A stretch of 64,000 nucleotides of DNA, taken from the NCBI GenBank assembly GCA_015490755.1, contig WFXF01000002.1:8433-72432 (forward strand), in the 5' to 3' direction. Shown here piece by piece: positions 1 through 51,254 of this stretch (the first letter of the stretch is position 1; each line of letters starts with the position of its first letter). The stretch is from Gammaproteobacteria bacterium. GTDB taxonomy: Bacteria > Pseudomonadota > Gammaproteobacteria > JAADGQ01. Below the pieces are notes generated by a model. That model did no database searches, was not told where the DNA came from, and saw only the letters and a list, made by a program, of their open reading frames with translations. A program made the translations under genes and the position numbers.

Positions 1-558
1 GTGGGTGAAAAAGTACTTATTGCTGGCTTGCTGGCAACCGATCTGCAATTTTATTCGCGGCGTTTGACATTGGATAAAGGGAGTCAGCATGGTGTGTATT
101 CCGGTCAGCCAGTACTGAATGCTCATGGGGTGGTGGGGCAAATTGTTGAGGTGGGACTTTATTCCAGTATTGCAATGCTGATTACAGATTCAAGTCATGC
201 TGTGCCTGTACAAGTACTGCGCAACGGACTGCGCGCACTTGTCGAAGGGCGAGGAGCAAGTAATCGCCTGGCATTACCTTATTTGTCGATGAGTGCAGAT
301 ATTCAGGTAGATGATCTGTTGGTTACTTCCGGGTTGGGGGGGGTGTTTCCTCCTAATTATCCCGTTGCAATTGTCAAGTCAGTTGAACGCAATCCGGGTC
401 AAACTTTTATGACTATCAGCGCAGAACCTCTTGCGTTATTGGATAGTGGGCGTGAAGTGTTATTAATATGGAACACTCAAAATATAGAATCCGATGAAAA
501 AAATACAGCGAGTAGCAAAGATGAGTCGGACTTAACTGAAACAGATCGTGCACAATGA
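1..558 (+). CDS. mreC: rod shape-determining protein MreC, C-terminal part (5' end lies outside the window)
   Basis: Open from base 1. Translation matches the MreC C-terminal domain (GxVGxV... LVTSGLGGVFPxxYPVA). It is followed, with a 4-bp overlap, by mreD. Confidence 0.85.
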   Translation: MGEKVLIAGLLATDLQFYSRRLTLDKGSQHGVYSGQPVLNAHGVVGQIVEVGLYSSIAMLITDSSHAVPVQVLRNGLRALVEGRGASNRLALPYLSMSADIQVDDLLVTSGLGGVFPPNYPVAIVKSVERNPGQTFMTISAEPLALLDSGREVLLIWNTQNIESDEKNTASSKDESDLTETDRAQ

Positions 559-1046
559 AAGTGACGACACCCAATGCCGGCTGGGTGATTGTACTCACCT
601 TTTTTATTGCAATATTGCTAATGATTATGCCTTTACCGGAATGGGGGCAGCCACTTCGGCCTCATTGGGTGGCAATGGTTTTGGTCTATTGGTGTCTGGC
701 TTTGCCATCTCGTATCGGTATTTTGAGCGCCTGGAGCTGTGGTCTGTTGCTGGATGTACTCTCTGGAACTCTTCTGGGCGAACAAGCACTGGCTTTAAGT
801 CTGGTTGCTTATATTACACTGTGGTTACACAAACGAATTCGTGTCAAACCACTTTTGCACCAGGCATTGATACTATTTTTAATATTGCTGCTGGCTCACC
901 ATATTCCATTGTTGTGGATACAGGGTATTAGTGGGCAGTCAATTCAAAGCTGGACATATTGGATAACGCCTTTTAGTAGTGCTCTATTGTGGCCTGTTGT
1001 ATTTTTATTATTGCGATATGTGCGACGTAAATTCAGAGTGACCTGA
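555..1046 (+). CDS. mreD: rod shape-determining protein MreD
   Basis: 163-aa polytopic membrane protein. Its start overlaps the mreC stop (ATGA), as in the mreBCD operon. Confidence 0.82.
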   Translation: MKVTTPNAGWVIVLTFFIAILLMIMPLPEWGQPLRPHWVAMVLVYWCLALPSRIGILSAWSCGLLLDVLSGTLLGEQALALSLVAYITLWLHKRIRVKPLLHQALILFLILLLAHHIPLLWIQGISGQSIQSWTYWITPFSSALLWPVVFLLLRYVRRKFRVT

Positions 1047-1050
1047 TTTT

Positions 1051-2886
1051 ATGCAACGTCGCGATATCAAAGACCATATCAGGGAGAGTCGTAACTTTAG
1101 CCATCGATCTGCCGCGGCCCTGGTGCTTGTCGTAATTTTAGTGTCAGTAATTTTGGGAAGGCTTGTTTATTTGCAGGTTGCGAACTATGAACACTACACC
1201 ACACAAGCACAGAATAATCGGGTAAAAATTATTCCAGTCGCCCCTACCCGCGGTTTGATCTATGATCGCAATGGTGTCATTTTGGCTCAAAACCAAACTT
1301 CATTTACGCTGGAAATAATACCAGAAAAAGTGGATGACCTAGAGGTAATGCTGGCCGAGCTGCGCAGCATTATTTCTGTCAGTGATGCAGATATAGAACG
1401 TTTTTATCGAGATATGAAGCGACAGCGTCGTTTTGACAGCGTACCTTTGCGTTACTGGTTGACAGATGATGAGGTTGCAAAATTTTCAGTTGTACGATAT
1501 CGCTTTTCCGGAGTAACAATTAAAGCACGTTTGGTGCGCCATTATACTTATGGGCAGTTGACCACTCATGTGTTGGGGTATGTTGCACGCATCAATGAAA
1601 AAGAGCAAAAACAGGTTGATGAGTCTAACTATAGTGCAACAAATTATATTGGAAAAACAGGCGTTGAAAAGTATTACGAAACCCAGCTGCATGGCCAGGT
1701 AGGTTATGAAAAAATAGAAGCTAATGTTCAGGGGCGCGTTTTACGTATTTTAGAGCGTACAGTGCCGGTGGCGGGTGATAGCCTGAATTTAACTCTTGAT
1801 ATTGATTTACAGATTGTTGCGAGCCAGGCATTGAATAAGTATCGGGGGGCTGTGGTGGCCATTAAGCCTGAAACGGGCGAAATTTTAGCCTTTGTGAGTA
1901 TGCCGAGCTACGATCCTAACCAGTATACCGTTGGGTTTGGTCATGCGGCATATAAAGCGCTGCTTGAATCACCCGATCGTCCACTTTTTAATCGTGCTTT
2001 ACGTGGCCGCTATCCCCCAGGATCTACTGTCAAACCCTTTGTAGGGTTGGCAGGGTTGCAATTTAAGGAGGCGCGGCAGGAGGTTTATTGCCCCGGCTGG
2101 TTTTCATTAGAGGGGGATGACCACCGTTATCGTGACTGGAAGCAGACCGGTCATGATATGACGTCACTGAAAAAAGCAATTGTAGAGTCATGTGACGTTT
2201 ATTTCTATGATTTGGCGTTACGTTTGGGTATTGACCGGATTTCACCTTTTATGAAGCAGTTTGGCTTTGGTTTACTCACTGAGGTTGATATCAGTGGTGA
2301 ATTAAGCGGTTTGATGCCATCAAGGCAGTGGAAACGAGCCGAACGCTATCGTATATGGTTTCCAGGGGAGACTTTAATCACAGGGATTGGTCAGGGGTTT
2401 ATGTTATCAACACCATTGCAACTAGCTTCATCGACAGCAGCGCTGGCAAATAATGGCATTCAAATGAAGCCGCATATTGTTGCATCCACATCGGTGGCTG
2501 GCAGAATGGCTCCAATTGTCAAGCCGCCCGAATTGTTGCACAAAGTGACTAATCTGAATGAAAGTAATATGAGTTATATTATTTCTGCGATGCGCAGTGT
2601 TGTGCACAGCTCAACAGGGAGTGCCCGAAAAATTTCTCATAACTTAACATACGATATTGCGGGAAAAACGGGAACATCACAGGTTTTCGGTATCAAGCAG
2701 GATGAGGTGTATGTCAAAGAAGAAATTGCAGAAAGATTGCGCGATCATGCGTTGTTTATCGCATTTGCGCCTATCGAACACCCAAAGATTGCGATTGCAG
2801 TCGTGGTCGAAAATGGGGGGAGTGGCGGCGACGTTGCTGCACCGATTGCGAGGCAGGTCATGGATGCTTATCTGAAAAAACAGTGA
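1051..2886 (+). CDS. mrdA: peptidoglycan D,D-transpeptidase, penicillin-binding protein 2
   Basis: 611 aa with an N-terminal TM anchor, a PBP dimerisation domain and a transpeptidase domain with STVK, SCD and KTG(T) motifs. Followed by rodA. Confidence 0.93.
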   Translation: MQRRDIKDHIRESRNFSHRSAAALVLVVILVSVILGRLVYLQVANYEHYTTQAQNNRVKIIPVAPTRGLIYDRNGVILAQNQTSFTLEIIPEKVDDLEVMLAELRSIISVSDADIERFYRDMKRQRRFDSVPLRYWLTDDEVAKFSVVRYRFSGVTIKARLVRHYTYGQLTTHVLGYVARINEKEQKQVDESNYSATNYIGKTGVEKYYETQLHGQVGYEKIEANVQGRVLRILERTVPVAGDSLNLTLDIDLQIVASQALNKYRGAVVAIKPETGEILAFVSMPSYDPNQYTVGFGHAAYKALLESPDRPLFNRALRGRYPPGSTVKPFVGLAGLQFKEARQEVYCPGWFSLEGDDHRYRDWKQTGHDMTSLKKAIVESCDVYFYDLALRLGIDRISPFMKQFGFGLLTEVDISGELSGLMPSRQWKRAERYRIWFPGETLITGIGQGFMLSTPLQLASSTAALANNGIQMKPHIVASTSVAGRMAPIVKPPELLHKVTNLNESNMSYIISAMRSVVHSSTGSARKISHNLTYDIAGKTGTSQVFGIKQDEVYVKEEIAERLRDHALFIAFAPIEHPKIAIAVVVENGGSGGDVAAPIARQVMDAYLKKQ

Positions 2887-2899
2887 TGACAGCATAGTT

Positions 2900-4036
2900 A
2901 TGGCAAATATGAATTATGAATCACACTCATATTGGAGTGGTAGTGCAAGCAAACGCTGGTTTATGACGCGATTGCATCTGGATTGGCCATTGACTGTGGG
3001 GTTGGTTCTTTTGTCAATTGTAGGGTTGTTTATCCTCTATAGCGCAAGCGGTCAGGATATGGCCTCTATCGAGAGGCAGGGGATTCGTCTGGGGCTGGCT
3101 TTTGCCGTGATGATTGCAGTAGCACAGATCAATCCTTATCAAATCCAGCGATGGGCACCGTGGATATTTGGCCTGGGGGTGATTTTGTTAATCGCCGTGC
3201 TGATTTTTGGAGTGATCGGAAAAGGTGCACAGCGCTGGCTGGATTTTGGTTTTTTTCGTTTTCAACCGTCAGAATTAATGAAAATCGCAGTGCCTATGAT
3301 GGTGGCATGGTATGTCGCCGATCGGCCTCTACCGCCTAAGTCAAAAAGAGCGTTTGGTGCCTTGTTATTGATATTAGTGCCTACTTTTTTGATTTCCCGG
3401 CAGCCTGATCTGGGAACATCGTTATTGATTGCTTCTGCAGGGCTCTGGGTGCTTTTTTTATCGGGTATTCGTAAACGTGTGATCGGGGGAGCCATTTTGC
3501 TGGCACTAGCATTTGCCCCTGCTCTCTGGATGACAATGCATGATTATCAGCGTTCTCGAGTCTTGATGTTTCTAAATCCGCAAAATGACCCGCTGGGGGC
3601 GGGTTATCATATTATTCAGTCGAAAATTGCGATTGGTTCGGGGGGGATCTATGGTAAGGGTTGGTTGAATGGCAGTCAGTCGCAATTAGAATTTTTACCT
3701 GAGCGTTCAACCGATTTTATTTTTGCAGTTTTTAGTGAAGAGTTTGGCCTGTTGGGTATTTTTCTTCTGTTGATGCTTTATCTGTTTATCATTGTGCGAG
3801 GGCTATATATCGCGACGCAGGCGCAAACTTCATTTAATCGATTGCTGGCAGGGAGCTTGATTCTCACTTTTTTTGTTTACATCTTTGTCAATATAGGTAT
3901 GGTGACAGGTTTGCTGCCTGTTGTGGGAGTACCTCTACCCTTGGTTAGTTATGGAGGAACATCAATGGTGACCTTGATGGCTGCATTTGGTGTTTTGATG
4001 TCCATTCATACGCATCGGCGTTTACTGGTGCGTTAA
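2900..4036 (+). CDS. mrdB: SEDS-family peptidoglycan glycosyltransferase RodA
   Basis: 378-aa polytopic membrane protein of the FtsW/RodA family. Conserved position after mrdA. Confidence 0.93.
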   Translation: MANMNYESHSYWSGSASKRWFMTRLHLDWPLTVGLVLLSIVGLFILYSASGQDMASIERQGIRLGLAFAVMIAVAQINPYQIQRWAPWIFGLGVILLIAVLIFGVIGKGAQRWLDFGFFRFQPSELMKIAVPMMVAWYVADRPLPPKSKRAFGALLLILVPTFLISRQPDLGTSLLIASAGLWVLFLSGIRKRVIGGAILLALAFAPALWMTMHDYQRSRVLMFLNPQNDPLGAGYHIIQSKIAIGSGGIYGKGWLNGSQSQLEFLPERSTDFIFAVFSEEFGLLGIFLLLMLYLFIIVRGLYIATQAQTSFNRLLAGSLILTFFVYIFVNIGMVTGLLPVVGVPLPLVSYGGTSMVTLMAAFGVLMSIHTHRRLLVR

Positions 4037-4046
4037 CAGTTTAGAA

Positions 4047-5051
4047 ATGAAAATGAAAAAAACAGTTTTAATACTTTTAGTTGTCTCGGCAATCGTGGGT
4101 TCGTCATTACAAGCTGCATCTTTGGAGCAGAGGGATGATGTCAAGGCTTTCATTCAATCTATGGTGGAAAAACATGGCTTTGAATCCACTGAATTGCTTC
4201 AATTGTTTAAACAAGTGGAGCTGCGTGAAGATATTATCGAGTTAATGACCCGACCTGCTGAAGGGAAACCCTGGCATGAATATCGACCCATTTTTGTGAC
4301 TAAAAAACGAATTCAGGGCGGGGTTAAGTTTTGGAATGAAAATAGAGAGATTTTGTTGCGGGCAGAAAAAGAGTATGGTGTGCCGCCCGAAATTATTACT
4401 GCCATTATTGGTGTTGAGACACGTTATGGAGGCTATATTGGCAAGCATCGGGTGATTGATGCATTGACTACGCTCGGTTTTGATTATCCAAAGCGGGCTA
4501 AGTTTTTTAGCAGTGAACTTGAACACTTTCTATTATTGATGCGTGATGAATCCAAAGATCCTTTGATTCCAGTTGGCTCTTATGCCGGGGCAATGGGAAT
4601 ACCTCAATTTATTCCAAGTAGCTATCGTCATTATGCGGTTGATTTTGATGGCGATGGTAAGCGTGATTTGTGGGAAAACCGGGCCGATGTGATTGGCAGT
4701 GTTGCAAGTTATTTTCAACGGCACGGTTGGCAAGCCGGGCAGCCTGTCGTGAGCCAGGTGAAGGTTGAAGGTGATGGTTATATTGCATTGCTGAAAGCGG
4801 GAATTAAACCAAAACATAATTTGAAACACTTTAGGGAGAATGGTGTGATCATCAGTGATAAGTTTTCTGATGAACTGCCTGCTGCACTGCTAAAGTATGA
4901 AACGAAGTCAGAGCCGGAGTATTGGATAGGTCTGCAAAATTTTTATACGATTACACGATATAATCACAGTAAGCGTTACGCTATGGCTGTGTATCAGTTA
5001 GCAATGGCGATTCGCGATGCTCATAAAAATCAAAAACAAGTCAGCAGATAA
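4047..5051 (+). CDS. mltB: lytic murein transglycosylase B
   Basis: Signal peptide, and MltB/Slt35-family conserved stretches (e.g. ...ETRYGGYIGKH...). Confidence 0.85.
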   Translation: MKMKKTVLILLVVSAIVGSSLQAASLEQRDDVKAFIQSMVEKHGFESTELLQLFKQVELREDIIELMTRPAEGKPWHEYRPIFVTKKRIQGGVKFWNENREILLRAEKEYGVPPEIITAIIGVETRYGGYIGKHRVIDALTTLGFDYPKRAKFFSSELEHFLLLMRDESKDPLIPVGSYAGAMGIPQFIPSSYRHYAVDFDGDGKRDLWENRADVIGSVASYFQRHGWQAGQPVVSQVKVEGDGYIALLKAGIKPKHNLKHFRENGVIISDKFSDELPAALLKYETKSEPEYWIGLQNFYTITRYNHSKRYAMAVYQLAMAIRDAHKNQKQVSR

Positions 5052-5052
5052 A

Positions 5053-5853
5053 ATGAAAGATATTGTTGAAATATTTCATCGAAGCCGTGTGTTATGGATA
5101 GGGAGTGTGTTGTTTTTAAGCGCATGCAGCACAGTTGTGACTCAGCAGGATGGGCCGCCGCCGCATAGTGTTGATGTCAGTTCGATTGGTAATGCAAAAC
5201 CAAAATTTGAAGCACGCAGCAGGTATGGAAACCCTGAATCATACGTTGTTGGCAACCGGCGTTATTACACAATGGAGAGTAGTCAAGGGTATGTGGATGA
5301 AGGGGTTGCTTCATGGTACGGCTCTAAATTTCATGGGCGACGTACGTCGAGTGGGGAGATCTATAATATGTACGGTATGACAGCTGCACACAAGAGCCTG
5401 CCATTACCGACCTATGTGGAGGTGACCAATCTGGATAATGGCCAAAAAATAGTTGTAAAGGTGAATGATCGCGGCCCGTTTGTTGATGGCCGTCTGATTG
5501 ATCTTTCGTATGTAGCCGCAGCCAAATTAGGTATCACGCAGCATGGCACAGGGCGAGTCAAGGTTCGTGCTATTGATGTAAAGCAAGGCGCACCTGCTGT
5601 GACGAAAGCAGAAGCAGTTTCATCGCGTGTCTATTTGCAGGTGGGAGCATTTAGTCAGCAGTATAATGCAGAAAAGCTACAAGACTCACTGACAGAGAAA
5701 CGTTTTGCAAACGTACATATCCATGAATCGAATGGCACTGGTAGTTCGCTTTACCGGGTTCGTATTGGGCCGGTTGATGATGAGGCGCTGCTGAAATTAG
5801 CAGCAAAAGTCAGACCTTACATAGGTCATGAACCTCATGTCGTTGTTGATTGA
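5053..5853 (+). CDS. rlpA: septal ring lytic transglycosylase RlpA family lipoprotein with a C-terminal SPOR domain
   Basis: The ORF opens at 5017, but the likely start is the ATG at 5053, because a lipoprotein signal (…LSAC) follows. It has a DPBB domain (GxASWYG… GxxTxSGE) and a C-terminal SPOR domain. Conserved position between mltB and dacA. Confidence 0.85.
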   Translation: MKDIVEIFHRSRVLWIGSVLFLSACSTVVTQQDGPPPHSVDVSSIGNAKPKFEARSRYGNPESYVVGNRRYYTMESSQGYVDEGVASWYGSKFHGRRTSSGEIYNMYGMTAAHKSLPLPTYVEVTNLDNGQKIVVKVNDRGPFVDGRLIDLSYVAAAKLGITQHGTGRVKVRAIDVKQGAPAVTKAEAVSSRVYLQVGAFSQQYNAEKLQDSLTEKRFANVHIHESNGTGSSLYRVRIGPVDDEALLKLAAKVRPYIGHEPHVVVD

Positions 5854-9543: not shown

Positions 9544-10521
9544 ATGTTGGTTTCATCCATTGCGGTTTTATTAGGTTTGATTGTCATGATCTGGGGGGCA
9601 GACCGGTGTGTGACAGGTGCTTCTGCATTAGCACGAAATCTGGGTGTTTCACCACTGGTGATTGGTTTAACAATTATTGGCTTTGGTACTTCGGCTCCTG
9701 AACTTTTAGTGTCTGGTCTGGCGACCTGGGAGGGCAATCCCGGATTGGCGGTGGGTAATGCTATTGGTTCCAATATCGCGAATATTGCGTTGGTCATTGG
9801 TGTGACGGCATTGGTGTCACCGTTAATAGTGAGTTCAAAAACGGTGCGGCGTGAATTCCCTGTTTTACTCGCCGTTGTGTTGTTGGCATTTATTTTAATG
9901 ATGGATGGCGAGCTATCACAAATTGACGGAGTGGTATTAATTGCCGGGCTGGTCGCTATGGTTGCCTGGGTTGTTCATTTGGGGCTTCAGGGTCATGAGT
10001 CCGGGAGTGATCCTGTCGAGCAAGAGTATGACGACGAGATCCCTAAAGATATGTCCATGTCGAAAGCATTAGCGTGGCTGATTGTTGGGTTGATCCTGTT
10101 ATTGGCGAGCTCCAAGGCGTTGGTTTGGGGTGCGGTGAATATTGCTGAGGCATTTGGTGTCAGTGACCTGATTATCGGTTTGACTATTATCGCAATTGGT
10201 ACCAGTCTGCCTGAATTAACCGCATCAGTGATGAGTGTGCTTAAAAAAGAGGATGACCTTGCCATTGGCAATATTATTGGCTCGAATATGATTAATATTC
10301 TGGGTGTATTGGCACTGCCTGGTTTGATTGCAGCGCCGGCCATACTGGATGCAGAAGTGATGAGCCGGGATTTTCCTTTTATGGCCATACTGACCGTTGT
10401 TTTATTGATTATGGCTTTTGGTCGAAAAGGGGCAGGTAAGATTTCACGCCTGGAGGGAGGCGTATTGTTAATCTCTTTTGTTGCTTATATGGTTTATCTC
10501 TATTTGAGCGCTGTTTCTTGA
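9544..10521 (+). CDS. yrbG: CaCA-family sodium:calcium antiporter (YrbG-like)
   Basis: Two internal alpha-repeats (GxSxPE). Conserved position upstream of kdsD. Confidence 0.85.
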   Translation: MLVSSIAVLLGLIVMIWGADRCVTGASALARNLGVSPLVIGLTIIGFGTSAPELLVSGLATWEGNPGLAVGNAIGSNIANIALVIGVTALVSPLIVSSKTVRREFPVLLAVVLLAFILMMDGELSQIDGVVLIAGLVAMVAWVVHLGLQGHESGSDPVEQEYDDEIPKDMSMSKALAWLIVGLILLLASSKALVWGAVNIAEAFGVSDLIIGLTIIAIGTSLPELTASVMSVLKKEDDLAIGNIIGSNMINILGVLALPGLIAAPAILDAEVMSRDFPFMAILTVVLLIMAFGRKGAGKISRLEGGVLLISFVAYMVYLYLSAVS

Positions 10522-11504
10522 TGACTCTCTTTATAGACGAAAAAAAACTTTGTGACTTAGGTAGAGCGGTTGTTGAGGTTGAAGCGGCGGCTGTAGCCGC
10601 ACTGGCAGTACGCATTGACAAGTTTTTTGTCCAGGCCTGTCGCCATATGTTGGCTTGTGAAGGCCGAATTGTTGTTATTGGCATGGGAAAATCGGGTCAT
10701 ATTGGCGGTAAAATTGCGGCAACATTAGCCAGTACCGGAACGCCTGCATTTTTTGTTCACCCAGGTGAAGCCAGTCATGGTGACTTGGGGATGATCACGA
10801 ATAAAGATGTTGTTTTAGCACTGTCAAATTCAGGTGAAACCGATGAAATCCTGACGATTGTACCCCTGATTAAACGGTTGGGTGTTCCACTTATATCAAT
10901 GACTGGAAATTCATCGTCGGCACTGGCAACGTCATCGACGGTGCATATTGATGTGAGTGTTGAAAAAGAGGCATGTCCATTAGGTTTGGCTCCCACATCC
11001 AGTACGACGGCTGTTTTGGTTATGGGTGATGCGCTGGCTGTATCAATGCTGGAGGAGCGGGGATTCACGGCAGAAGATTTTGCATTTTCTCATCCGGGTG
11101 GCCGTTTAGGGCGGCGTTTACTGTTGCATATCCAGGATATTATGCATACGGGTGATCGAATTCCCCAAGTAACAGAAGATGTTTTGCTTGGTGATGCTCT
11201 GGTGGAGATGACCAAAAAAAGTTTAGGTATGACGGTGGTGGTGGATGTTAAGTCCCGGGTCACTGGTGTTTTTACCGATGGCGACTTGCGGCGCGTGATT
11301 GACCATGAGTGGGATGTTCATACTACGCCGATTACTGAGGTCATGACACGGCAGTGTAAAACCGTACAGGCCGATCTATTGGCGGCAGAAGCACTGCAGT
11401 TAATGGAGCAATCTGCAATCAATGCGCTGCCTGTCGTGGATAGTGAGAACCGGCTAGTCGGTGCATTTAATATGCATGATCTTTTAAAAGCAGGAGTCGT
11501 TTGA
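10518..11504 (+). CDS. kdsD: arabinose-5-phosphate isomerase (SIS + tandem CBS)
   Basis: An SIS domain (GMGKSGHIG) plus C-terminal CBS pair. Its start overlaps the yrbG stop. Confidence 0.93.
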   Translation: MMTLFIDEKKLCDLGRAVVEVEAAAVAALAVRIDKFFVQACRHMLACEGRIVVIGMGKSGHIGGKIAATLASTGTPAFFVHPGEASHGDLGMITNKDVVLALSNSGETDEILTIVPLIKRLGVPLISMTGNSSSALATSSTVHIDVSVEKEACPLGLAPTSSTTAVLVMGDALAVSMLEERGFTAEDFAFSHPGGRLGRRLLLHIQDIMHTGDRIPQVTEDVLLGDALVEMTKKSLGMTVVVDVKSRVTGVFTDGDLRRVIDHEWDVHTTPITEVMTRQCKTVQADLLAAEALQLMEQSAINALPVVDSENRLVGAFNMHDLLKAGVV

Positions 11505-12031
11505 TGGACGCTATTTATCAACGTGCGACAAAGATTCGCCTGGTCATTTTTGATGTTGACGGTGTATTAACAGACGGTCGGCTCTACTTTGGCGCTGAAG
11601 GCGATGAGTATAAAACATTTCATGTTCGTGATGGACTCGGTATGAAAATGTTACAGGCGAGCGGTGTAGCCATTGGAGTCATTACGGCACGGCGTTCAAA
11701 AGCAGTGGCTCTGCGTATGGAGGCGCTGGGTGTCGAATATGTCTATCAAGGGCAAGAGAATAAAGTTCCTGCATTTGAGAATTTACTGGAAAAAGCACAA
11801 CTAGAAGCAGCGCAGGTGGCTTATGTCGGTGATGATATTATTGATCTGCCAATTATGCGGCGTGTGGGATTAGCCATTGCCGTGGCTGATGCGCATGAGC
11901 ATGTAAAACAGTACAGTCACTGGCAAACAAGCCGTAACGGTGGCTGTGGTGCAGCACGTGATGCATGTGAATTGATTATGAAAGCACAGGGCACACTAGA
12001 TGCTCAATTTCAGAAATATATTAACGCTTAA
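11501..12031 (+). CDS. kdsC: 3-deoxy-D-manno-octulosonate 8-phosphate phosphatase
   Basis: HAD family (FDVDGVLTDG). Conserved after kdsD. Confidence 0.9.
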   Translation: MMDAIYQRATKIRLVIFDVDGVLTDGRLYFGAEGDEYKTFHVRDGLGMKMLQASGVAIGVITARRSKAVALRMEALGVEYVYQGQENKVPAFENLLEKAQLEAAQVAYVGDDIIDLPIMRRVGLAIAVADAHEHVKQYSHWQTSRNGGCGAARDACELIMKAQGTLDAQFQKYINA

Positions 12032-12569
12032 AAGTGGTACAGGCCGATGGCTGCTTGTGACAGGTCTATTAATTATCGTAGTTTGGGGGTGGAAAAGCCT
12101 ACATCCGACCACATCGGATACTCGGCCAAAAACCAATGAGACTCCCGACTCTTTTTTTTCAAAGTTCAAGTCCGCCAAAATGGATGAAACCGGTCAGATT
12201 CATTATGAACTATCTGCATCTATGTTGTATCACTACTCAGGTGACAAACGAGCAACGCTGGAGCTTCCGATGATCAGATTGTTTGAAAGCGGTGAGCAGG
12301 TTTGGCGGGTTCGTGCGAATGCTGGAACGGTGATTAATGGCGGTGAGAAGTTTGAGCTGCAAGGCGATGTGGAGTTGTTTCGAGAGACAGATGGTTTCTC
12401 TTTAAAAACCGAAACGCTCACTGTTTGGCCAAATCAATCAAAAGCTGAAACAGATAAGCCCGTTATATTGATAAGCACACTTGGTGAGATTAAAGCTGTA
12501 GGTATGCATGCTGATTTTTTAAATGAACGGCTGACACTTTTATCCCAGGTCAGAGGTCGTTATGAATAG
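12000..12569 (+). CDS. lptC: LPS export system protein LptC
   Basis: 189 aa with an N-terminal TM anchor, in the conserved position between kdsC and lptA. The start may lie slightly downstream. Confidence 0.75.
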   Translation: MLNFRNILTLKSGTGRWLLVTGLLIIVVWGWKSLHPTTSDTRPKTNETPDSFFSKFKSAKMDETGQIHYELSASMLYHYSGDKRATLELPMIRLFESGEQVWRVRANAGTVINGGEKFELQGDVELFRETDGFSLKTETLTVWPNQSKAETDKPVILISTLGEIKAVGMHADFLNERLTLLSQVRGRYE

Positions 12570-29918: not shown

Positions 29919-30923
29919 TTATTTTACCTGATCCGTTTGCTTGATTTTCTTCAAATATATAATCGATGCTCTTCGGTTCTCATCATCTGGATAGACACGA
30001 CCGGAGGTGAGGCAAGTAAAAATATGTTTGAAAACTTCGCCGGGAGTGCCTTTTTTGGTTCCAGAGCGAAAATAGGAGTGGCCTTTGGGGCGGTCATATG
30101 CACTATTAACATCATCGCAATCAACTCGATATACATTTCTTGGTGTTTTCTCTATATCTTCCGGGCCGGTATGACCTAACCTGCGAGATGCAATTTTATT
30201 TTTAAGGTTTGAAACTTTGCTTGCTCGAAGTGCCAGGTCATCCGATGCGTGATAAACAATAACATTACGTGAAGTATGGCAGATTAATTCTCCAGGCTCA
30301 CCTTTGTGAAGTGTTTCATTGACTACATCAGCAGCGACCATGAAGGTGTTTCTAAAAATCAGGGGCAACCCTTTGGGCAGGTCATATTTGCCCCAGACGG
30401 ATAATGTTTCTCGTAGAACACGGTTCCCCATAGAGTGAGCTAATAAGTTGACTCTTTTCAGGCAGGGTTCATCCTGAGGGTTATATTTTTCAGAATTACG
30501 CCATGCTATGAATTTTTCTAATACTCTTGCAAAAGAGAAGGCACTTTGGTCAGCAGCTTTTTGATCATCCCAATAATCCTTGATAATTCCTAAATCGTTG
30601 TCGCATGGCCAAACGATGGGGATGACTAGAATTTCACCCTTTTTAGTTTTTTCACAAAGGTTTTGAAATTCATTAACGGCAGAAAACACATCTTCAGGAA
30701 GGTTGGAAAACCCATGGATGTATATAAGAATCTGGCGACATTCCGACCCTTTTAGCCGACTTAAAAACTCAATACTGCCAATCTCTTTGTACTCTTTTTC
30801 AGATAAACGTTCACAGAAAAATACTGAATTGCTTGCTGCATTATTATTTAGGTCAAAATCAAAATTTCGTCCAACCCGGGTTCGAATGCTCTGTTTTGGG
30901 AATCGGTTTGTAATAAAAATCAT
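29919..30923 (-). CDS. alpha/beta-hydrolase fold protein (putative esterase/lipase, DUF900-like). It is an orphan and AT-rich.
   Basis: 334 aa with the nucleophile elbow AHSMG (GxSxG-type), IYIHGF upstream, and candidate Asp/His downstream. It sits where nadD would normally precede rsfS. Confidence 0.7.
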   Translation of the reverse strand: MIFITNRFPKQSIRTRVGRNFDFDLNNNAASNSVFFCERLSEKEYKEIGSIEFLSRLKGSECRQILIYIHGFSNLPEDVFSAVNEFQNLCEKTKKGEILVIPIVWPCDNDLGIIKDYWDDQKAADQSAFSFARVLEKFIAWRNSEKYNPQDEPCLKRVNLLAHSMGNRVLRETLSVWGKYDLPKGLPLIFRNTFMVAADVVNETLHKGEPGELICHTSRNVIVYHASDDLALRASKVSNLKNKIASRRLGHTGPEDIEKTPRNVYRVDCDDVNSAYDRPKGHSYFRSGTKKGTPGEVFKHIFTCLTSGRVYPDDENRRASIIYLKKIKQTDQVK

Positions 30924-30953
30924 TTTAATTTCTCTCCTTATAAAAATTAAGCT
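30824..30953. repeat. copy 1 of a 130-bp direct duplication (the first 33 codons of the hydrolase gene plus 30 bp upstream)
   Basis: Near-identical, with a single 1-nt indel, to 32124-32253. Confidence 0.9.
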
Positions 30954-31020
30954 CTGAACTTTGAACCGAAGTAAAAGAGCAAGTCAGAGTGTAGAAGTTA
31001 TTTCGTGAACGTTCCTAAGT

Positions 31021-31110
31021 GCCGTGTTAAGTGGTTTTGCTTTTCACTATAAGGATATCAGTTTGAAAAACGGTTTTGGTGACCCTAATAATCTGCATAT
31101 GTTTCTTTGA
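31021..31110 (+). pseudogene. fragment paralogous to the C-terminal part of the 185-aa membrane protein at 32905-33462
   Basis: About 80% nucleotide identity to 33247-33336. It translates to AVLSGFAFHYKDISLKNGFGDPNNLHMFL*, against AVLSGFAFHYEDINLAGGFGDPDNLHMLLG in the intact gene. Confidence 0.4.
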
Positions 31111-31120
31111 GTTTTGGATG

Positions 31121-31148
31121 TTGATTGTAATAAATCTAATGTTATAAT
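31121..31148 (+). promoter_or_regulatory. candidate sigma-70 promoter of the TA operon
   Basis: TTGATT, then a 16-nt spacer, then TATAAT, ending 38 nt upstream of the antitoxin ATG. An AAGAGG RBS lies at 31175-31180. Confidence 0.4.
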
Positions 31149-31186
31149 GTGTATCTAATGTATGCACAGAAAAAAGAGGTTATCTT

Positions 31187-31450
31187 ATGAGCAAAACCGC
31201 ATCTATCAATATGCGTGTTGAGCCTAGCCAGCACGAACTTTTAACAAAGGCATCAAGAATTCTACATAAAGATAGAAGTGCCTTTATTTTAGATATTGCC
31301 TGTCGAGAAGCAAAAAATGTACTGCTGGATCAACGTTTGTTTTTATTAGAAAGTGAGGCTTTTGAAAAGTTTGAGCAGGCTTTAAATACTCCACTGGCTG
31401 AAAACAGTAGACTAGAGCAACTTATGGCTGAGCCGTCACCGTGGGATTAA
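31187..31450 (+). CDS. DUF1778-family antitoxin of the TacA/AtaR/KacA type (RHH fold)
   Basis: 87 aa. INMRVEPSQHELLTKAS…SAFILD…A…VL… matches the DUF1778 consensus. It overlaps the toxin gene by 10 bp. Confidence 0.88.
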   Translation: MSKTASINMRVEPSQHELLTKASRILHKDRSAFILDIACREAKNVLLDQRLFLLESEAFEKFEQALNTPLAENSRLEQLMAEPSPWD

Positions 31451-31938
31451 TAAAAAAACCTGAATTACTTGATAGCAAACATAATGTTTTAGGCTTTAAC
31501 TGTGGTAATGAAACCTTAAATGATTGGTTAAAAAAGAAGGCTTTAAAAAATCAAAGGCAGGGAGCAAGTAAAGCCTTTGTTATTTGTGATGACATACAGG
31601 TTGTTGGTTACTACGCTTTGGCAACAGGCAGTGTGGAAAGAATAAATGCACCCAAGTCTTTAGCACGAAATATGCCGAACCCTATACCTGTTATTGTTCT
31701 TGGCAGGTTGGCGATTGACCAGCAGTTTCATGGTAAAAAACTTGGTTCAGCACTACTTAAAGATGCCATAAAACGTACTATTTATATATCTGAAAATGTA
31801 GGTGTAAAGGCTTTACTGGTGCATGCAATTTCAGAAGAAGCTAAAAGATTTTACCTTCACCACAATTTTATTGAATCACCTATAGAATCAATGACGTTAT
31901 TATTATCAATGAATAATAAGAAAAGACTTATAATCTAG
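31441..31938 (+). CDS. GNAT-family toxin (aminoacyl-tRNA-acetylating, TacT/AtaT/KacT-like)
   Basis: 165 aa with an acetyl-CoA binding segment (…QQFHGKKLGSALLKDAIKR…) and the conserved pairing with an upstream DUF1778 antitoxin. Confidence 0.86.
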   Translation: MGLIKKPELLDSKHNVLGFNCGNETLNDWLKKKALKNQRQGASKAFVICDDIQVVGYYALATGSVERINAPKSLARNMPNPIPVIVLGRLAIDQQFHGKKLGSALLKDAIKRTIYISENVGVKALLVHAISEEAKRFYLHHNFIESPIESMTLLLSMNNKKRLII

Positions 31939-32100
31939 GAGCCTGTCCGAGAATGAAAAGTCTACTGCGGAAAATCCATTTCGGCCATATTTGGTGTAAA
32001 TTTTCGTTAAATAGAACAACTATTCGCCTCAAATTTACACCAAATCTGCCATCAAAATGGCTTTCCCTCGCTACGACTTCCATTCTCGGACAGGCTCCTA
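31938..32100. repeat. 163-bp palindromic MITE-like element with 17-bp terminal inverted repeats (GAGCCTGTCCGAGAATG … CATTCTCGGACAGGCTC)
   Basis: Left and right TIRs, and internal inverted segments (ATTTGGTGTAAATTT / AAATTTACACCAAAT), are directly visible. It starts at the toxin stop codon. A second partial copy lies at 51147-51254. Confidence 0.7.
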
Positions 32101-32123
32101 GTCATGGTACTTTACCAATGAAC

Positions 32124-32253
32124 TGAATTGCTTTGCCGCATTATTATTTAGGTCAAAATCAAAATTGCGTCCAACTCGGGTTCGAATGCTCTGTTTTGGG
32201 AATCGGTTTGTAATAAAAATCATTTTAATTTCTCTCCTTATAAAAATTAAGCT
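32124..32253. repeat. copy 2 of the 130-bp direct duplication. It carries a truncated hydrolase start (46-codon relic ORF on the minus strand).
   Basis: Matches 30824-30953. Confidence 0.9.
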
Positions 32254-32307
32254 TCTTTTAAGCTTACATGGTTATGCTGTCACTCTTGGGTCTATAGAAA
32301 TAGAGTA

Positions 32308-32892
32308 ATGGTTATGAGTGAAAGTAGCACAAAACAAATTAAAGTATGGGATGGCCTTGTGCGCGGTTTTCACTGGCTGATGCTGCTCTCTTTTGTGGGC
32401 GCTTATATTACTAGCCAGTCAGGAATGCAGCAAACTCATATTTTGATTGGCTACTTCATCTGTTTATTACTGATTATTCGTACTGTGTGGGGCTTTATCG
32501 GAAGCAAACATGCGCGCTTCTCTGATTTTGTTGCTTTACCTTCACATGTATGGGCTTATCTGCAAGCCAGCTTTAGAAACAGTCCCCCTCATTATTTTGG
32601 TCATAATCCAGCTGGTGGCTGGATGGTGTTGGCTTTGATGGGGGCGCTTTTGTTGATGTCTGTGAGTGGAGTGATTCTTGTCTCTGTAATCGAATTTGAA
32701 GGGCCACTACTGAATTTATTGTCTGGTATGAGTGATCAGTGGGCCTATCGCTATGAAGAGCTGCATGAAGTGGCACTTAACATCTTGTGGTTGTTGATCG
32801 CAGGGCATTTAGTGGGTGTGGTCGTTGCATCAATTCAACATAAAGAAAATCTGCTACGTGCCATGGTCAGTGGGTATAAAATTATAAAATAG
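32308..32892 (+). CDS. cytochrome b561 family protein (CybB/YceJ-like, PF01292)
   Basis: 194 aa with four TM helices and conserved His (…FHWLMLL…, …GHLVGVV…) in the Ni/Fe-hydrogenase b-type cytochrome fold. Confidence 0.85.
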   Translation: MVMSESSTKQIKVWDGLVRGFHWLMLLSFVGAYITSQSGMQQTHILIGYFICLLLIIRTVWGFIGSKHARFSDFVALPSHVWAYLQASFRNSPPHYFGHNPAGGWMVLALMGALLLMSVSGVILVSVIEFEGPLLNLLSGMSDQWAYRYEELHEVALNILWLLIAGHLVGVVVASIQHKENLLRAMVSGYKIIK

Positions 32893-32904
32893 ATATGAGG
32901 GAAA

Positions 32905-33462
32905 ATGATGAAAAAGTATTTAGCGATCTGCTGCATATTATTTAGCTGGAATTGCTCTGCTCAAGCTCAGGAATACATGCCAGAACACTTTTTGGATTTG
33001 TCTGTTAAGCCGCAACCGTATACATCCTATATTCAATTAGCCCAGCTTGATACGGCAAATTTAAATGCTACCCATGAAGGCCATAATGAAGAGAAGAAAC
33101 CCCTGTTTAAATCCAGGCCTGTGACTTTGAATAAAGTGCATAAATATCTTGGTTACGCTTCAATGGTAAGTGCTGTATTGACAGGGTTGTCACCCAAAAC
33201 AGCCGGGGGTCCTCATGAGCTTTTTGGTACAGCCGCAGCCGCTTTTGGTGCGGCAGCTGTGTTAAGCGGTTTTGCTTTTCATTATGAAGATATCAATTTG
33301 GCGGGTGGTTTTGGCGACCCGGATAACTTGCATATGCTTCTTGGCATTTTAGGAACCGCAGGTTATGCCGTTGCTGTGAGTAGTGGTGAAGATGGTGGGC
33401 ATGGTGGTCCTGGTACTCTTGGTGCGCTCAGCATGGCTATGGCTATTAAATTAACCTGGTAG
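32905..33462 (+). CDS. hypothetical protein: signal peptide, a roughly 70-aa periplasmic segment, then Gly/Ala-rich TM helices flanked by His residues
   Basis: 185 aa with no recognisable family. Tightly coupled (a 12-bp gap) between the b561 gene and the c-type cytochromes. Confidence 0.6.
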   Translation: MMKKYLAICCILFSWNCSAQAQEYMPEHFLDLSVKPQPYTSYIQLAQLDTANLNATHEGHNEEKKPLFKSRPVTLNKVHKYLGYASMVSAVLTGLSPKTAGGPHELFGTAAAAFGAAAVLSGFAFHYEDINLAGGFGDPDNLHMLLGILGTAGYAVAVSSGEDGGHGGPGTLGALSMAMAIKLTW

Positions 33463-33472
33463 GAGCTTAAGA

Positions 33473-33865
33473 ATGAATAAAATATTAATTTTTGTGGTTG
33501 CAATACTCTTCTCATCAATTGCATTGGCGACAACCCCCATTGATCAACGTATGGCTGATTATAACCCTGATGGTAATCTGATATTTGATGCTAAACGTGG
33601 TGAAGATTTATGGAATCAGAAGCGTATGGTTGATGGCAAACAGCGTGATTGTAACGCTTGCCACGGTAAAGATCTCACACAGCCGGGTGAGCATGTAAAA
33701 AGTGGCAAAGTGATTAAGCCTATGGCCTATTCAGTCAATAAGGAGCGTTTCACTAAACTGAAAAAGGTCAAAAAGTGGTTCAAACGTAATTGTAAATGGA
33801 CTTATGGACGCGAGTGCACCACTCAAGAGAAAGGTGATTTGCTTAAATACTTATCTCAATTTTAA
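33473..33865 (+). CDS. monoheme c-type cytochrome (single CxxCH; SHP/DUF1924-like)
   Basis: A signal peptide and one CNACH haem-binding motif; 130 aa. Confidence 0.75.
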   Translation: MNKILIFVVAILFSSIALATTPIDQRMADYNPDGNLIFDAKRGEDLWNQKRMVDGKQRDCNACHGKDLTQPGEHVKSGKVIKPMAYSVNKERFTKLKKVKKWFKRNCKWTYGRECTTQEKGDLLKYLSQF

Positions 33866-33881
33866 ACAGGGCTGAAATATT

Positions 33882-34448
33882 ATGACTAAAAGACTAACAA
33901 TATTATCTATAGTGACTCTCTTGGGGCTGGGAATCAATACGTCGGTCTTTGCAGATGGTGAAAGTTTTTTTGATTGGTTGTTGACTACGGATTCGCGTAA
34001 CGAAATCAAACCCATGCAGAATGAGTTATATAATGAGGAGTGCAGCGACTGTCACTTTCCTTATCAGGCGGGCCTATTACCGGAAGCCTCTTGGAAAAAG
34101 CTGCTTGACCCTAAAGCACTGGAAGACCATTTTGGTGATAATGCTGAATTAGATGATGAAACAAGGAGTGCAATATTGGATGCTTTGATTGCGGATTCGG
34201 CCGATAAATCACGATATAAGCGTTCCAAAAAAATTATGTCATCACTGGGCGAAAATGAAGTGCCCATGCGTATTATTGATATTCCTTATATTAAGCGTAA
34301 GCATCATGAAATTTCTGATAAACTCATCACTGGAAATGACAAGGTGAAATCATTAAGTTTTTGCGATGCATGTCATCAAAAAGCAGATGAGGGAATCTAT
34401 GATGATGACAGCGTGGTAATTCCTGGGCATGGTAACTGGACGTGGTAA
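33882..34448 (+). CDS. diheme cytochrome c (DHC family)
   Basis: A signal peptide and two CxxCH motifs (CSDCHF and CDACHQ) about 105 aa apart, as in DHC. Confidence 0.8.
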   Translation: MTKRLTILSIVTLLGLGINTSVFADGESFFDWLLTTDSRNEIKPMQNELYNEECSDCHFPYQAGLLPEASWKKLLDPKALEDHFGDNAELDDETRSAILDALIADSADKSRYKRSKKIMSSLGENEVPMRIIDIPYIKRKHHEISDKLITGNDKVKSLSFCDACHQKADEGIYDDDSVVIPGHGNWTW

Positions 34449-34468
34449 TAACCGTGGAAAATTGAATC

Positions 34469-35131
34469 ATGCGTATACTTCTGGTTGAAGACGATCCGCA
34501 GTTGGGCGATGGCATTCGTACCGGTCTGCAACAGGTCAGTTATGCTGTAGATTGGTTACGTGATGGCTTGGGCGCTTTGCATAGTCTGGAAGTCGAAAAC
34601 TTTGATATGGTGATACTCGATCTGGGTTTGCCACGTATGGATGGTCTCAGTGTACTGGAGAAAATTCGTGCTTCCGGCAACGATGTACCCATATTGATTT
34701 TAACAGCGAGAGACACTGTTGCAGATCGTGTCAAAGGGCTTGACAGCGGTGCCGATGATTATTTGGCAAAACCATTTGATCTGGATGAGTTGTGCGCTCG
34801 AATAAGGGCATTGAGTCGTCGTCACAGTGGCCGGGCATCCTCATTAATCAAGTACCGTGATATCGTTTTGGATCCAATGGCTCACAGCCTCAATAAAAAC
34901 GGTGAAGAGATAAATCTATCAACCCGAGAATTTAAAATTCTACAAATTCTGTTTGAAAATATCGGTCGTGTCTTGTCCAGAGAGCGCATTGAAGAAAGCT
35001 TGTTCGGCTGGGATGATTCACTTGAAAGTAATGCCACCGAAGTTCATATTCATCATCTGCGCAAAAAATTGGGCAAAGATCTTATTGTGACTATTCGCGG
35101 TGTTGGTTACATGATCGCTAAAGAGAGTTGA
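34469..35131 (+). CDS. OmpR/PhoB-family DNA-binding response regulator
   Basis: A receiver domain (DD…D…K) plus a winged-helix trans_reg_C domain. Confidence 0.93.
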   Translation: MRILLVEDDPQLGDGIRTGLQQVSYAVDWLRDGLGALHSLEVENFDMVILDLGLPRMDGLSVLEKIRASGNDVPILILTARDTVADRVKGLDSGADDYLAKPFDLDELCARIRALSRRHSGRASSLIKYRDIVLDPMAHSLNKNGEEINLSTREFKILQILFENIGRVLSRERIEESLFGWDDSLESNATEVHIHHLRKKLGKDLIVTIRGVGYMIAKES

Positions 35132-36483
35132 TGAAACCCCGTTCAATCCGTCAAAACTTATTATTATTGGTATTGGGGGCAGTATTCATCTCTTGGGCAG
35201 TAGTTGCTCTGTTTGTCTATAAAAGTGCTAAACATGAAACTGAAGAGGTTTATGATGCACATCTGGTTCAAAGTGCCAAGTTGTTAGCCTCATTAATCAG
35301 GTATGAGCAGGAAAAGAGTCATCAGCTACAGGTTGAGATGGATGACTTTCTACCCATAGCACATAAATACGAATCTAAAATATCTTTTATTGTTTATTAT
35401 GGTGATGGAAAGGTAATGGTTCGTTCAGCATCGGCTCCAATACTGCCGGAGATTGAATCTTTCAATAATTTCAAACAGATCGAAGTTGATGGCGTCATTT
35501 GGTATACCTATAACCTTCGTGACCCCAAGACAAACTTACTTATTCAAACCGCTCAACGTTATGATGTCCGCCAGGAACTGATTAACTATATTAGTAGTAG
35601 CGTATTAGGTGTAATGCTGCTTTCTCTGCCGTTTATCGCAATTTTGATCTGGATTACTATTGGTCGAGGCCTGCGCCCATTGGTTCTGCTGGCAGATTCT
35701 ATATCGGGCCGATCAGTACAGCAGTTGGAGCCGATTACACTCGAAAGAGTGCCTACTGAAGCACAGCCTATTGTTTATGCTTTGAACTCTCTTTTTAATC
35801 GCTTGTCGCAAGCTTTTGAAAAAGAGCGACGCTTTACTGCGGATGCGGCTCATGAGTTGCGTACACCATTGTCAGGTATAAAAACCCAGGCACAGGTGGC
35901 TCTGCGATCAACAGAAAACAAGCAGCGACAGCAAGCGATAGTGCAAGTGATTACGGGCGTTGAACGTACAACCAAGCTGGTCAATCAGCTGTTAATTCTT
36001 GCCAGAGTTGATGCTGAGCAACATATCGTTAAAACTGAGCTGAACCTGAAACAGCTATGCGCGACCGTGATTAGCGAACAGATTGTTTCAGCTCTGAGTA
36101 AAAATATAGATATCAGTCTGGAAGGTGAGTCACTTGTAACCATAAATGGTAATGAAGAGTTGATACATATTTTGATTGCGAATGTAATCAATAATGCAAT
36201 ACGTTATACGCCCAGCGAAGGGCGTATTATTGTCAGTGTAACAAGTGATGCGCAGGGTATAGTGTTTGAGGTGAAAGATTCCGGTTTTGGTATATCTAAA
36301 TCATTGCAGACAGAAGTTTTTAATCGTTTTAAACGTGGTGAGCATTCAGATATTTCTGGTAGCGGATTGGGGTTATCAATAGTGTTGCGAATCTCCGAGC
36401 TACACCGTGCAAGAATTCAGCTGGGTGAAGGTTTGGATAATGCAGGGCTTAGTGTCAAAATCACTTTTGAACAAACTGCGTAA
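35128..36483 (+). CDS. sensor histidine kinase (two TM, HAMP, HisKA, HATPase_c)
   Basis: H-box AHELRTPL and G1/G2 boxes (GSGLGLSIV). Overlaps the regulator gene by 4 bp. Confidence 0.92.
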   Translation: MMKPRSIRQNLLLLVLGAVFISWAVVALFVYKSAKHETEEVYDAHLVQSAKLLASLIRYEQEKSHQLQVEMDDFLPIAHKYESKISFIVYYGDGKVMVRSASAPILPEIESFNNFKQIEVDGVIWYTYNLRDPKTNLLIQTAQRYDVRQELINYISSSVLGVMLLSLPFIAILIWITIGRGLRPLVLLADSISGRSVQQLEPITLERVPTEAQPIVYALNSLFNRLSQAFEKERRFTADAAHELRTPLSGIKTQAQVALRSTENKQRQQAIVQVITGVERTTKLVNQLLILARVDAEQHIVKTELNLKQLCATVISEQIVSALSKNIDISLEGESLVTINGNEELIHILIANVINNAIRYTPSEGRIIVSVTSDAQGIVFEVKDSGFGISKSLQTEVFNRFKRGEHSDISGSGLGLSIVLRISELHRARIQLGEGLDNAGLSVKITFEQTA

Positions 36484-51146: not shown

Positions 51147-51254
51147 TTTTTCGGTATTTTGAGGCGAATAGTTGTTCTATTTAACGAAAATTTACACCAA
51201 ATCTGCCTCAAAATGGCTTTCCCTCGCTACGACTTCCATTCTCGGACAGCCTCC
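51147..51254. repeat. second, partial copy of the MITE-like element (right half and TIR)
   Basis: …TTTACACCAAATCTGCC[T]CAAAATGGCTTTCCCTCGCTACGACTTCCATTCTCGGACAG[C]CTCC is almost identical to 32048-32100. The centre is inverted relative to copy 1. Confidence 0.65.

Follow-up and report, generated by a model that had tools for sequence, protein, structure and literature searches.

A 64,000-nucleotide stretch of gammaproteobacterial DNA (Gammaproteobacteria bacterium, assembly GCA_015490755.1, contig WFXF01000002.1, positions 8,433 to 72,432 of the forward strand; hereafter the window) carries a six-gene redox module at 32308-36483. We interpret this module as an SHP/irc-type periplasmic electron-transfer operon, ircD-ircC-ircB-ircA, which is extended by its own two-component system resembling PmrAB and QseBC. 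Taken together with the mechanism proposed below, this reading is assigned a probability of about 0.7. The protein encoded by the second gene, which had been singled out as an unknown membrane protein, is a member of the IrcC / Slit_1322 family.

Organization of the operon

All six open reading frames (ORFs) of the original prediction are present on the plus strand, and Pfam agrees with five of the assignments. The genes are as follows:

32308-32892, plus strand: membrane cytochrome b (IrcD / CytB); PF01292, 2.3e-24
32905-33462, plus strand: IrcC homologue (ORF185), 185 aa; by family membership and coordinate match to the published Table S2
33473-33865, plus strand: SHP-type monohaem cytochrome c (IrcB), 130 aa; DUF1924 (PF09086), 1.7e-37
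33882-34448, plus strand: periplasmic dihaem cytochrome c (IrcA; DHC), 188 aa; PF09626, 2.7e-32
34469-35131, plus strand: OmpR-family response regulator, PmrA/BasR/QseB-like; Response_reg and Trans_reg_C
35128-36483, plus strand: sensor histidine kinase, QseC/PmrB-like; 2CSK_N, HisKA and HATPase_c

The gaps between successive genes among the first five are 12, 10, 16 and 20 bp. The regulator and kinase genes overlap by 4 bp if the kinase begins at a TTG codon and by 1 bp if it begins at the ATG one codon later; the 1-bp overlap is the one called in relatives. There is no ORF between the DHC and regulator genes, and an Rfam scan of the region returned matches at chance level only. Judged by this spacing, all six appear to form a single, translationally coupled unit. 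Their order is kept in the close relatives, loci L005, L006, L007 and L067.

Cytochrome b, SHP and DHC

The trio of b561-type, monohaem and dihaem cytochromes proved to be a genuine SHP-DHC-cytochrome b cluster, as had been suspected. With 86.6 bits (cut-off 30.1), the cytochrome b matches PF01292 along the entire profile (positions 1-179 of 179). For the 130-aa protein, the DUF1924 match (128.1 bits against a cut-off of 22.5) and the single CXXCH motif (CNACH at residue 60) support its predicted identity as a monohaem cytochrome c. It aligns with the Rhodobacter sphaeroides SHP structure 1dw0 over residues 25-128 (2.6e-18), where KKWFKRNCKWTYGREC of the window SHP is aligned with EKWLGRNCNSVIGRDC of the Rb. 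sphaeroides protein. The alignment retains the haem-binding CXXCH, the distal residues (W-x3-N-C) and the Cys pair of the disulfide (C-x7-C); in the characterized SHP, N88 is the distal Asn ligand, W84 is its partner Trp, and C89-C97 form the disulfide (Meyer 2010, PMC2909971). The DHC matches PF09626 (112.7 bits against a cut-off of 22.2) and the solved structures from Shewanella and Rb. sphaeroides (3u99, 3.8e-27; 2fw5, 6.4e-24), and has two CXXCH motifs (CSDCH at 54, CDACH at 161).

ORF185 is an IrcC homologue

ORF185 has no match in Pfam, NCBIfam or the PDB, and its exact sequence has no matching database record. Its best match, at 99%, is from 'Crenotrichaceae bacterium HyVt-476', and its nearest relatives derive from hydrothermal vent samples. 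A word-indexed search returned 19 clusters of the family, and a profile search of 1.84 billion representatives returned approximately 260 (clustered at 50% identity). A further search with a member from a Sideroxydans metagenome-assembled genome (MAG) returned 582 homologues. All IrcC homologues found are annotated as hypothetical and none has a Pfam domain. The label of Sideroxydans lithotrophicus ES-1 is absent among the 582, and the link to Slit_1322 was made through the coordinates of Table S2.

In ES-1, a highly expressed and Fe(II)-responsive cluster encodes a cytochrome b (Slit_1321), Slit_1322, a monohaem cytochrome c (Slit_1323) and a dihaem cytochrome c (Slit_1324) (PMC8788666; PMC10734462; PMC12442390). 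Slit_1322 has been labelled a 'hypothetical extracellular protein'; the protein has been detected in proteomes and is induced by Fe(II). The Slit_1321-1324 cluster was found in 50 Gallionellaceae genomes, was named ircABCD, and its IrcC is given as 'a hypothetical protein' of the inner membrane (PMC12442390). A 2026 preprint describes the ES-1 monohaem protein as SHP-like. None of the irc-type papers on ES-1 and the Gallionellaceae assigns a fold or cofactor to IrcC.

Nine scaffolds listed in Table S2 of the irc study (PMC12442390) coincide with IrcC loci of the present set. Each of the nine published irc spans, which hold one match each to ircA, ircB, ircC and ircD, consists of exactly a DHC, an SHP, an ORF185 homologue and a CytB. 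Because these spans match gene for gene, ORF185 is a homologue of IrcC and the first four genes of the module correspond to ircD-C-B-A. The original prediction of an additional uncharacterised membrane protein is thus amended: the protein is not new, since it is the published IrcC, while its function is still uncharacterised.

To survey the family, we scanned genomes with two IrcC peptide patterns and obtained 62 loci (L005-L066), all from MAGs. The scan missed isolates with known ircC (ES-1, CL21 and ES-2), presumably because their proteins deviate from the patterns, and so it undercounts the family. The loci are concentrated in MAGs of the Gallionellaceae, Zetaproteobacteria and Nitrospirae, and occur in Gammaproteobacteria too. 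In Table S2, clusters containing IrcC are limited to the Gallionellaceae and Mariprofundaceae, and clusters of Shewanella, Thiothrix, Rhodoferax and Leptothrix are listed without ircC (PMC12442390). In ES-1 an Hsp33 gene lies downstream; none was detected at the loci tested.

Predicted structure of IrcC

In an AlphaFold2 model built on a 16-sequence alignment, a signal peptide is followed by a disordered segment at residues 20-66 and then by a bundle of four helices. The helices span residues 75-95, 103-129, 139-159 and 166-184, and the predicted local distance difference test score (pLDDT) of the core is approximately 80-90. The helices carry one to three charged residues apiece, all close to the ends. 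Among 155 diverse family members, five histidines are conserved (H79 100%, H104 99%, H126 90%, H143 100%, H166 99%), as are G83, G122, G150, G173, D140, M177 and the C-terminal W185. Each helix starts with one invariant His, and the modelled up-down topology would place H79, H143 and H126 at one end of the bundle and H104 and H166 at the other. The earlier description of the protein as His-rich is too strong in terms of composition, with 8 His in 185 residues (4.3%) compared with 4.6% in the cytochrome b; it is the conservation of five of these residues that stands out.

The four-helix model and the His pairs are consistent with a membrane b-type cytochrome, although no known cytochrome b is homologous and the His residues are unusually spaced. 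The possibility that IrcC is a diverged member of PF01292 was ruled out (hhalign probability 0.6%), and a fold search returned generic four-helix bundles only. Our hypothesis is that IrcC carries a cofactor on the His pairs, with haem b as the leading candidate and a metal site as the alternative.

Linkage of IrcC and DHC

The DHC gene lies immediately 3' of the IrcC gene, either directly or after SHP, in all 66 IrcC loci that were chosen by IrcC similarity alone. Other components are less constant. When the analysis is restricted to the 42 IrcC loci with at least 3 kb on each side (the full-flank set), ten have no PF01292 gene and four have no SHP. The IrcC-linked DHCs form one lineage with 52-62% identity, to which the window DHC belongs. 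Identity falls to 33% between these proteins and the DHCs encoded between SHP and CytB in the same genomes, and to 29-38% inside one locus. On this basis, we infer that IrcC and its own DHC are a functional pair.

Two locus variants were observed. Stand-alone IrcC-DHC pairs occur in L009, L015, L040 and L041, where there is no SHP or PF01292 gene within 3-6 kb and the neighbours are unrelated; in L040, a Fur-family regulator gene is located approximately 1.7 kb upstream of the pair. A five-gene layout, SHP-DHC-CytB-IrcC-DHC, is found in the Gallionellaceae loci L028, L034, L037, L038, L042, L044, L052, L055 and L062, and its two DHC paralogues are 29-38% identical. This layout suggests two parallel pairs of membrane protein and DHC (CytB with DHC, IrcC with DHC) serving one SHP.

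The two-component system

The response regulator is best matched among NCBIfam models by QseB (243.9 bits, cut-off 345) and PmrA (234.6 bits), in both cases under the equivalog cut-offs. It aligns without gaps to Klebsiella pneumoniae PmrA (4s04) over residues 1-218 (5.2e-47), and retains N188, H193, H195 and R198 of PmrA along with the conservative replacements K153R and T187S. For the kinase, the best NCBIfam model is QseC (259.1 bits against a cut-off of 475; 6.4e-77), which covers residues 7-446 of 451; the H-box HELRTP is at residue 242. The kinase belongs to the SK2 class of SHP-linked sensor kinases, since QseC is its best full-length match and the SK1 motifs are absent; a regular-expression search found SK1 motifs neither in the window kinase nor in any of the linked kinases.

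The sensor domain of the kinase is common only to the window and L005-L007. At the position of the acidic EYRDD motif of QseC, which is absent, the window kinase has QRYDVRQE. Immediately following its first transmembrane helix, the kinase has an HExxE motif (residues 36-40; 35233-35247). This motif is invariant in three orthologous kinases, and we take it to resemble the first ExxE iron-binding motif of PmrB. A sensor domain common to all irc-linked kinases was ruled out, as linked kinases of other lineages have unrelated sensor domains. A two-component gene is nearby in only 15 of the 42 full-flank loci.

A predicted regulator box shared with pgaABCD

The predicted binding sites and the neighbouring operon are as follows:

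32246..32262, plus strand: predicted response regulator box ATTAAG-N5-TTTAAG, 45 nt 5' of the cytochrome b start codon
41763..41779, minus strand: second copy of the predicted box, in the same orientation as the pga genes and 42 nt 5' of the pgaA start codon
36501..41720, minus strand: pgaABCD, outside the redox module; PgaD, GT2, Polysacc_deac_1 with GHL13, and PgaA_barrel (Pfam)

The sequence ATTAAG-N5-TTTAAG fits both the published PmrA box (CTTAAG-N5-xTTAAT) and the published QseB site (CTTAA-N6-CTTAA), which flanks the -35 element of ygiW-qseBC. There are exactly two exact matches in the 64-kb window, compared with approximately 0.013 expected, and two were reached in 0 of 300 Markov simulations. 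When approximately 600 kb of fetched loci were used as comparison DNA, exact matches were confined to orthologous irc and pga promoters. The irc box is kept at the same position 5' of the orthologous cytochrome operons in L006, L007 and L067, an equivalent box lies 46 nt 5' of pgaA in L006, and the sequence just 3' of the box is alike among the five promoters. The predicted pairing of regulator and box is of the PmrA type, combining the contact positions R153, S187, N188, H193 and H195 with a predicted hexamer repeat, spaced by 5 bp, 5' of both irc and pga.

Because the box is shared by both promoters and the contact residues are PmrA-like, we predict autoregulation of the cytochrome operon and co-regulation of pgaABCD: the regulator would control its own operon and also pga. 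The pga genes were correctly described as convergent with the module, with four Pfam-supported genes and 17 bp between the stop codons. The earlier suggestion of a link between the module and pga now gains support from the predicted regulator box common to both.

The arrangement differs in L006, whose IrcC is 83% identical to that of the window. Here pgaABC (288-5128) lies 5' of, and divergent from, the cytochrome operon, and the kinase gene is followed by a CusS/CusR-like pair and an outer-membrane efflux protein (9647-12555). The cytochrome module and pga have stayed neighbours through this rearrangement. Adjacency to pga as a general trait of IrcC loci was ruled out, as it is seen only in the window, L005 and L006.

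Proposed mechanism and alternative explanations

The proposed mechanism builds on the published model in which electrons pass from quinol to CytB, DHC and SHP, as well as on the frequent presence of sensor kinase/response regulator pairs within SHP operons (PMC2909971). The PF01292 cytochrome b and the four-helix IrcC, both in the inner membrane, would link the quinone pool to the periplasmic DHC. The DHC would exchange electrons with SHP, whose open distal haem site may bind a small ligand such as O2 or nitric oxide (NO). IrcC would serve as the dedicated membrane partner of its own DHC lineage. It probably has a cofactor, haem b or else a metal, bound by two groups of His at opposite ends of the bundle: H79/H143(/H126) and H104/H166. 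A periplasmic signal, for which iron is one candidate, would be sensed by the kinase, and the phosphorylated regulator would bind ATTAAG-N5-TTTAAG to activate its own operon and, in the window lineage, pgaABCD.

Several observations weigh against this interpretation. One paper predicts Slit_1322 to be extracellular. The hydropathy of IrcC is moderate, with Kyte-Doolittle peaks of 1.0-1.4, and its conserved His are at the helix ends, with H104 and H126 spaced 22 residues apart on helix 2. In dihaem cytochromes b, the typical His spacing is 13-14 residues; because the spacing in IrcC exceeds this, a classical transmembrane dihaem wire is uncertain. The regulator and kinase are relatives, not orthologues, of PmrAB and QseBC, as their scores are under the equivalog cut-offs. 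Adjacency to pga together with the shared box is seen in two genomes only, namely the window and L006. Finally, a scan for consensus promoters and terminators was uninformative, with 9 promoter-like sites compared with 13.2 expected.

A bolder version of the proposal goes further. It states that IrcC founds a new family of small four-helix inner-membrane redox proteins, with haem b or metal on H79/H143 and H104/H166. With its own DHC lineage, IrcC would make up a minimal and self-sufficient electron module between membrane and periplasm, able to take the place of the PF01292 cytochrome b. In neutrophilic iron oxidisers, the module would supply the inner-membrane link still missing from the irc pathway, and in the window lineage it would be wired via the PmrA-like box to PGA biofilm synthesis. 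We regard this combination of claims as rather doubtful.

Among the alternatives, the operon may serve iron oxidation or electron uptake. Electrons from Fe(II) or minerals would then pass via SHP and DHC to IrcC and the cytochrome b, either reducing quinone or feeding an oxidase, and the kinase would sense iron. We consider this possible but on the unlikely side. In its favor, Slit_1321-1324/ircABCD is upregulated with Fe(II) and tracks iron-oxidising ability; the family is concentrated in the Gallionellaceae, Zetaproteobacteria and Nitrospirae; and the nearest relatives of the window protein are from vents. QseC and PmrB relatives respond to iron, and the HExxE motif is invariant in the orthologous kinases. 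However, no outer-membrane iron oxidase such as Cyc2 or MtoAB was seen near the module, though no search aimed at them was made, and the idea of quinone reduction is called highly speculative in the literature. In addition, the window SHP retains the O2/NO-binding distal residues of the Rb. sphaeroides protein, and the iron/catecholamine motif EYRDD of QseC is not conserved, QRYDVRQE being found in the window.

It is unlikely, in our assessment, that the operon functions in detoxification of NO or O2, with SHP as a quinol-driven NO dioxygenase or oxygenase, DHC giving two electrons, and IrcC as a cofactor-less anchor or DHC assembly factor. Both NO dioxygenase activity and O2 binding have been reported for SHP, the window SHP keeps the distal N and W as well as the Cys of the disulfide, and the generic four-helix bundles returned by the fold search would suit a simple anchor. 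Nevertheless, four to five His and several Gly are 90-100% conserved in a family that is approximately 30-45% identical overall, which is hard to explain for a mere anchor, and IrcC-DHC pairs occur without SHP.

The weakest alternative, which had been put forward in the original prediction, treats the six genes as one signalling unit in which SHP and DHC, through binding of O2 or NO or through the redox state of the periplasm, signal to the periplasmic domain of the kinase; the co-directional genes with 10-20-bp gaps and a regulator/kinase overlap, the known binding of O2, NO and amines by SHP, and the sensor link discussed by Meyer et al. for the SK1/Orf1 type (PMC2909971) speak for it, but it is improbable given that, in 27 of the 42 full-flank loci, two-component genes are lacking within 3-6 kb of the IrcC/SHP/DHC core, that the kinases linked in other lineages have unrelated sensor domains, that the window kinase already possesses its own complete periplasmic domain (2CSK_N), and that a predicted regulator box lies 5' of the operon, as expected of a regulated target. 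As the first two of these points indicate, the cytochromes are better viewed as a regulated effector than as part of the sensor, and a role as periplasmic gas or redox sensor is unsupported.

Flanking region

The module had been placed at the edge of an accessory patch. This is correct in part. In the near-identical strain L067, the module adjoins the conserved genes DUF900-RsfS-RlmH-RNase G and only 91 bp separate DUF900 from the cytochrome b gene; what sets the window apart is an upstream toxin-antitoxin insertion of 1.3 kb. The 1300-bp insertion (30833-32253), absent from L067, has a 121-nt direct repeat of 98% identity at both ends (30833-30953 and 32133-32253), and its cargo is a TacA-like antitoxin (31187-31450) and a GNAT toxin (31441-31938). 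The cassette sits just 5' of the promoter region of the operon, which is intact. At the right end of the insertion there is a nested palindrome of approximately 167 bp (31935-32101) with 47-nt outer and 29-nt inner arms that are 79% complementary; it has no Rfam match. An 18-nt arm of the palindrome recurs once, with one mismatch, at 51237-51254, and it may represent a small repeated element similar to a miniature inverted-repeat transposable element (MITE) or repetitive extragenic palindrome (REP).

Significance

The analysis joins two literatures that have been unconnected for these genes, one concerning the SHP operon as known from purple bacteria and Shewanella, the other concerning the irc 'iron-responsive cluster'. 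The irc cluster has been proposed as a marker of microbial iron oxidation, and a hydrothermal gammaproteobacterium is now seen to have this marker cluster as well, together with a dedicated regulator. Two testable predictions are provided: the IrcC cofactor with its pairing to DHC, and the co-regulation of irc and pga. Should IrcC prove to be a redox protein, it would account for the inner-membrane step missing from the irc pathway. If the regulator binds the common box, periplasmic electron transfer would be coupled to production of PGA biofilm.

Comparison with known systems

SHP operons comprise three to six genes, which encode a membrane cytochrome b, one or two DHCs, and SHP, and are known in Rhodobacter sphaeroides, Shewanella, Burkholderia and others (Meyer, Kyndt & Cusanovich 2010, PMC2909971). 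In most species the operon additionally encodes a sensor kinase together with its response regulator. Three types are distinguished: SK1, accompanied by a periplasmic Orf1; the QseC-related SK2; and SK3 (PMC2909971). The claim that the present configuration is undescribed must therefore be withdrawn with respect to the two-component system, as SHP operons with kinase/regulator pairs inside the operon, including the QseC-like type, have been published (PMC2909971). The window module shares with these operons the same three cytochrome families, the SHP haem site with its distal N and W residues and disulfide, a QseC-related kinase and an OmpR-type regulator. It differs in having IrcC encoded between the cytochrome b and SHP genes, an arrangement not described by Meyer et al., and in containing neither the Orf1/SK1 type nor a CytB/mDHC chimera. 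The SK2 example of Leptothrix cholodnii, unlike the window, has no ircC.

With the ircABCD cluster of the Gallionellaceae, the window shares the same four families in the same order (cytochrome b, IrcC, monohaem c, dihaem c) and a DHC of the IrcC-linked lineage. In contrast, the window host is a gammaproteobacterium (nearest record Crenotrichaceae, Methylococcales) and no known iron oxidiser, its IrcC is approximately 30-40% identical to Gallionellaceae IrcC proteins, there is no Hsp33 gene, and two-component genes are fused to the operon.

The two-component system resembles PmrAB (BasRS) and QseBC in the full-length similarity of both proteins and in the PmrA base-contact residues of its regulator. 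The predicted box (xTTAAG-N5-xTTAAG) near the promoter of its own operon is likewise reminiscent of QseB at ygiW-qseBC, and QseBC is tied to biofilm in several species. It differs in its sensor domain, which is distantly related and has no EYRDD, and in its predicted targets, which are cytochromes and pga as opposed to lipopolysaccharide-modification or flagellar regulons.

IrcC itself is similar to the FdnI/CybB-type cytochromes of PF01292 and to eukaryotic cytochrome b561 in its predicted four-helix, largely uncharged bundle, its conserved His at both ends on different helices, the conserved Gly nearby, and the adjoining genes for periplasmic c-type cytochromes. It differs from these four-helix cytochromes b in having no sequence kinship, a far shorter core (approximately 110 residues) and His at the helix ends, and haem binding by IrcC is putative. 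To our knowledge, the combination of an IrcC cluster with an in-operon PmrAB/QseBC-like system, a Methylococcales-like hydrothermal host, and a neighbouring pga operon with a common box is undescribed. Both of its unusual features have already been published separately, and the module is a recombination of known parts.

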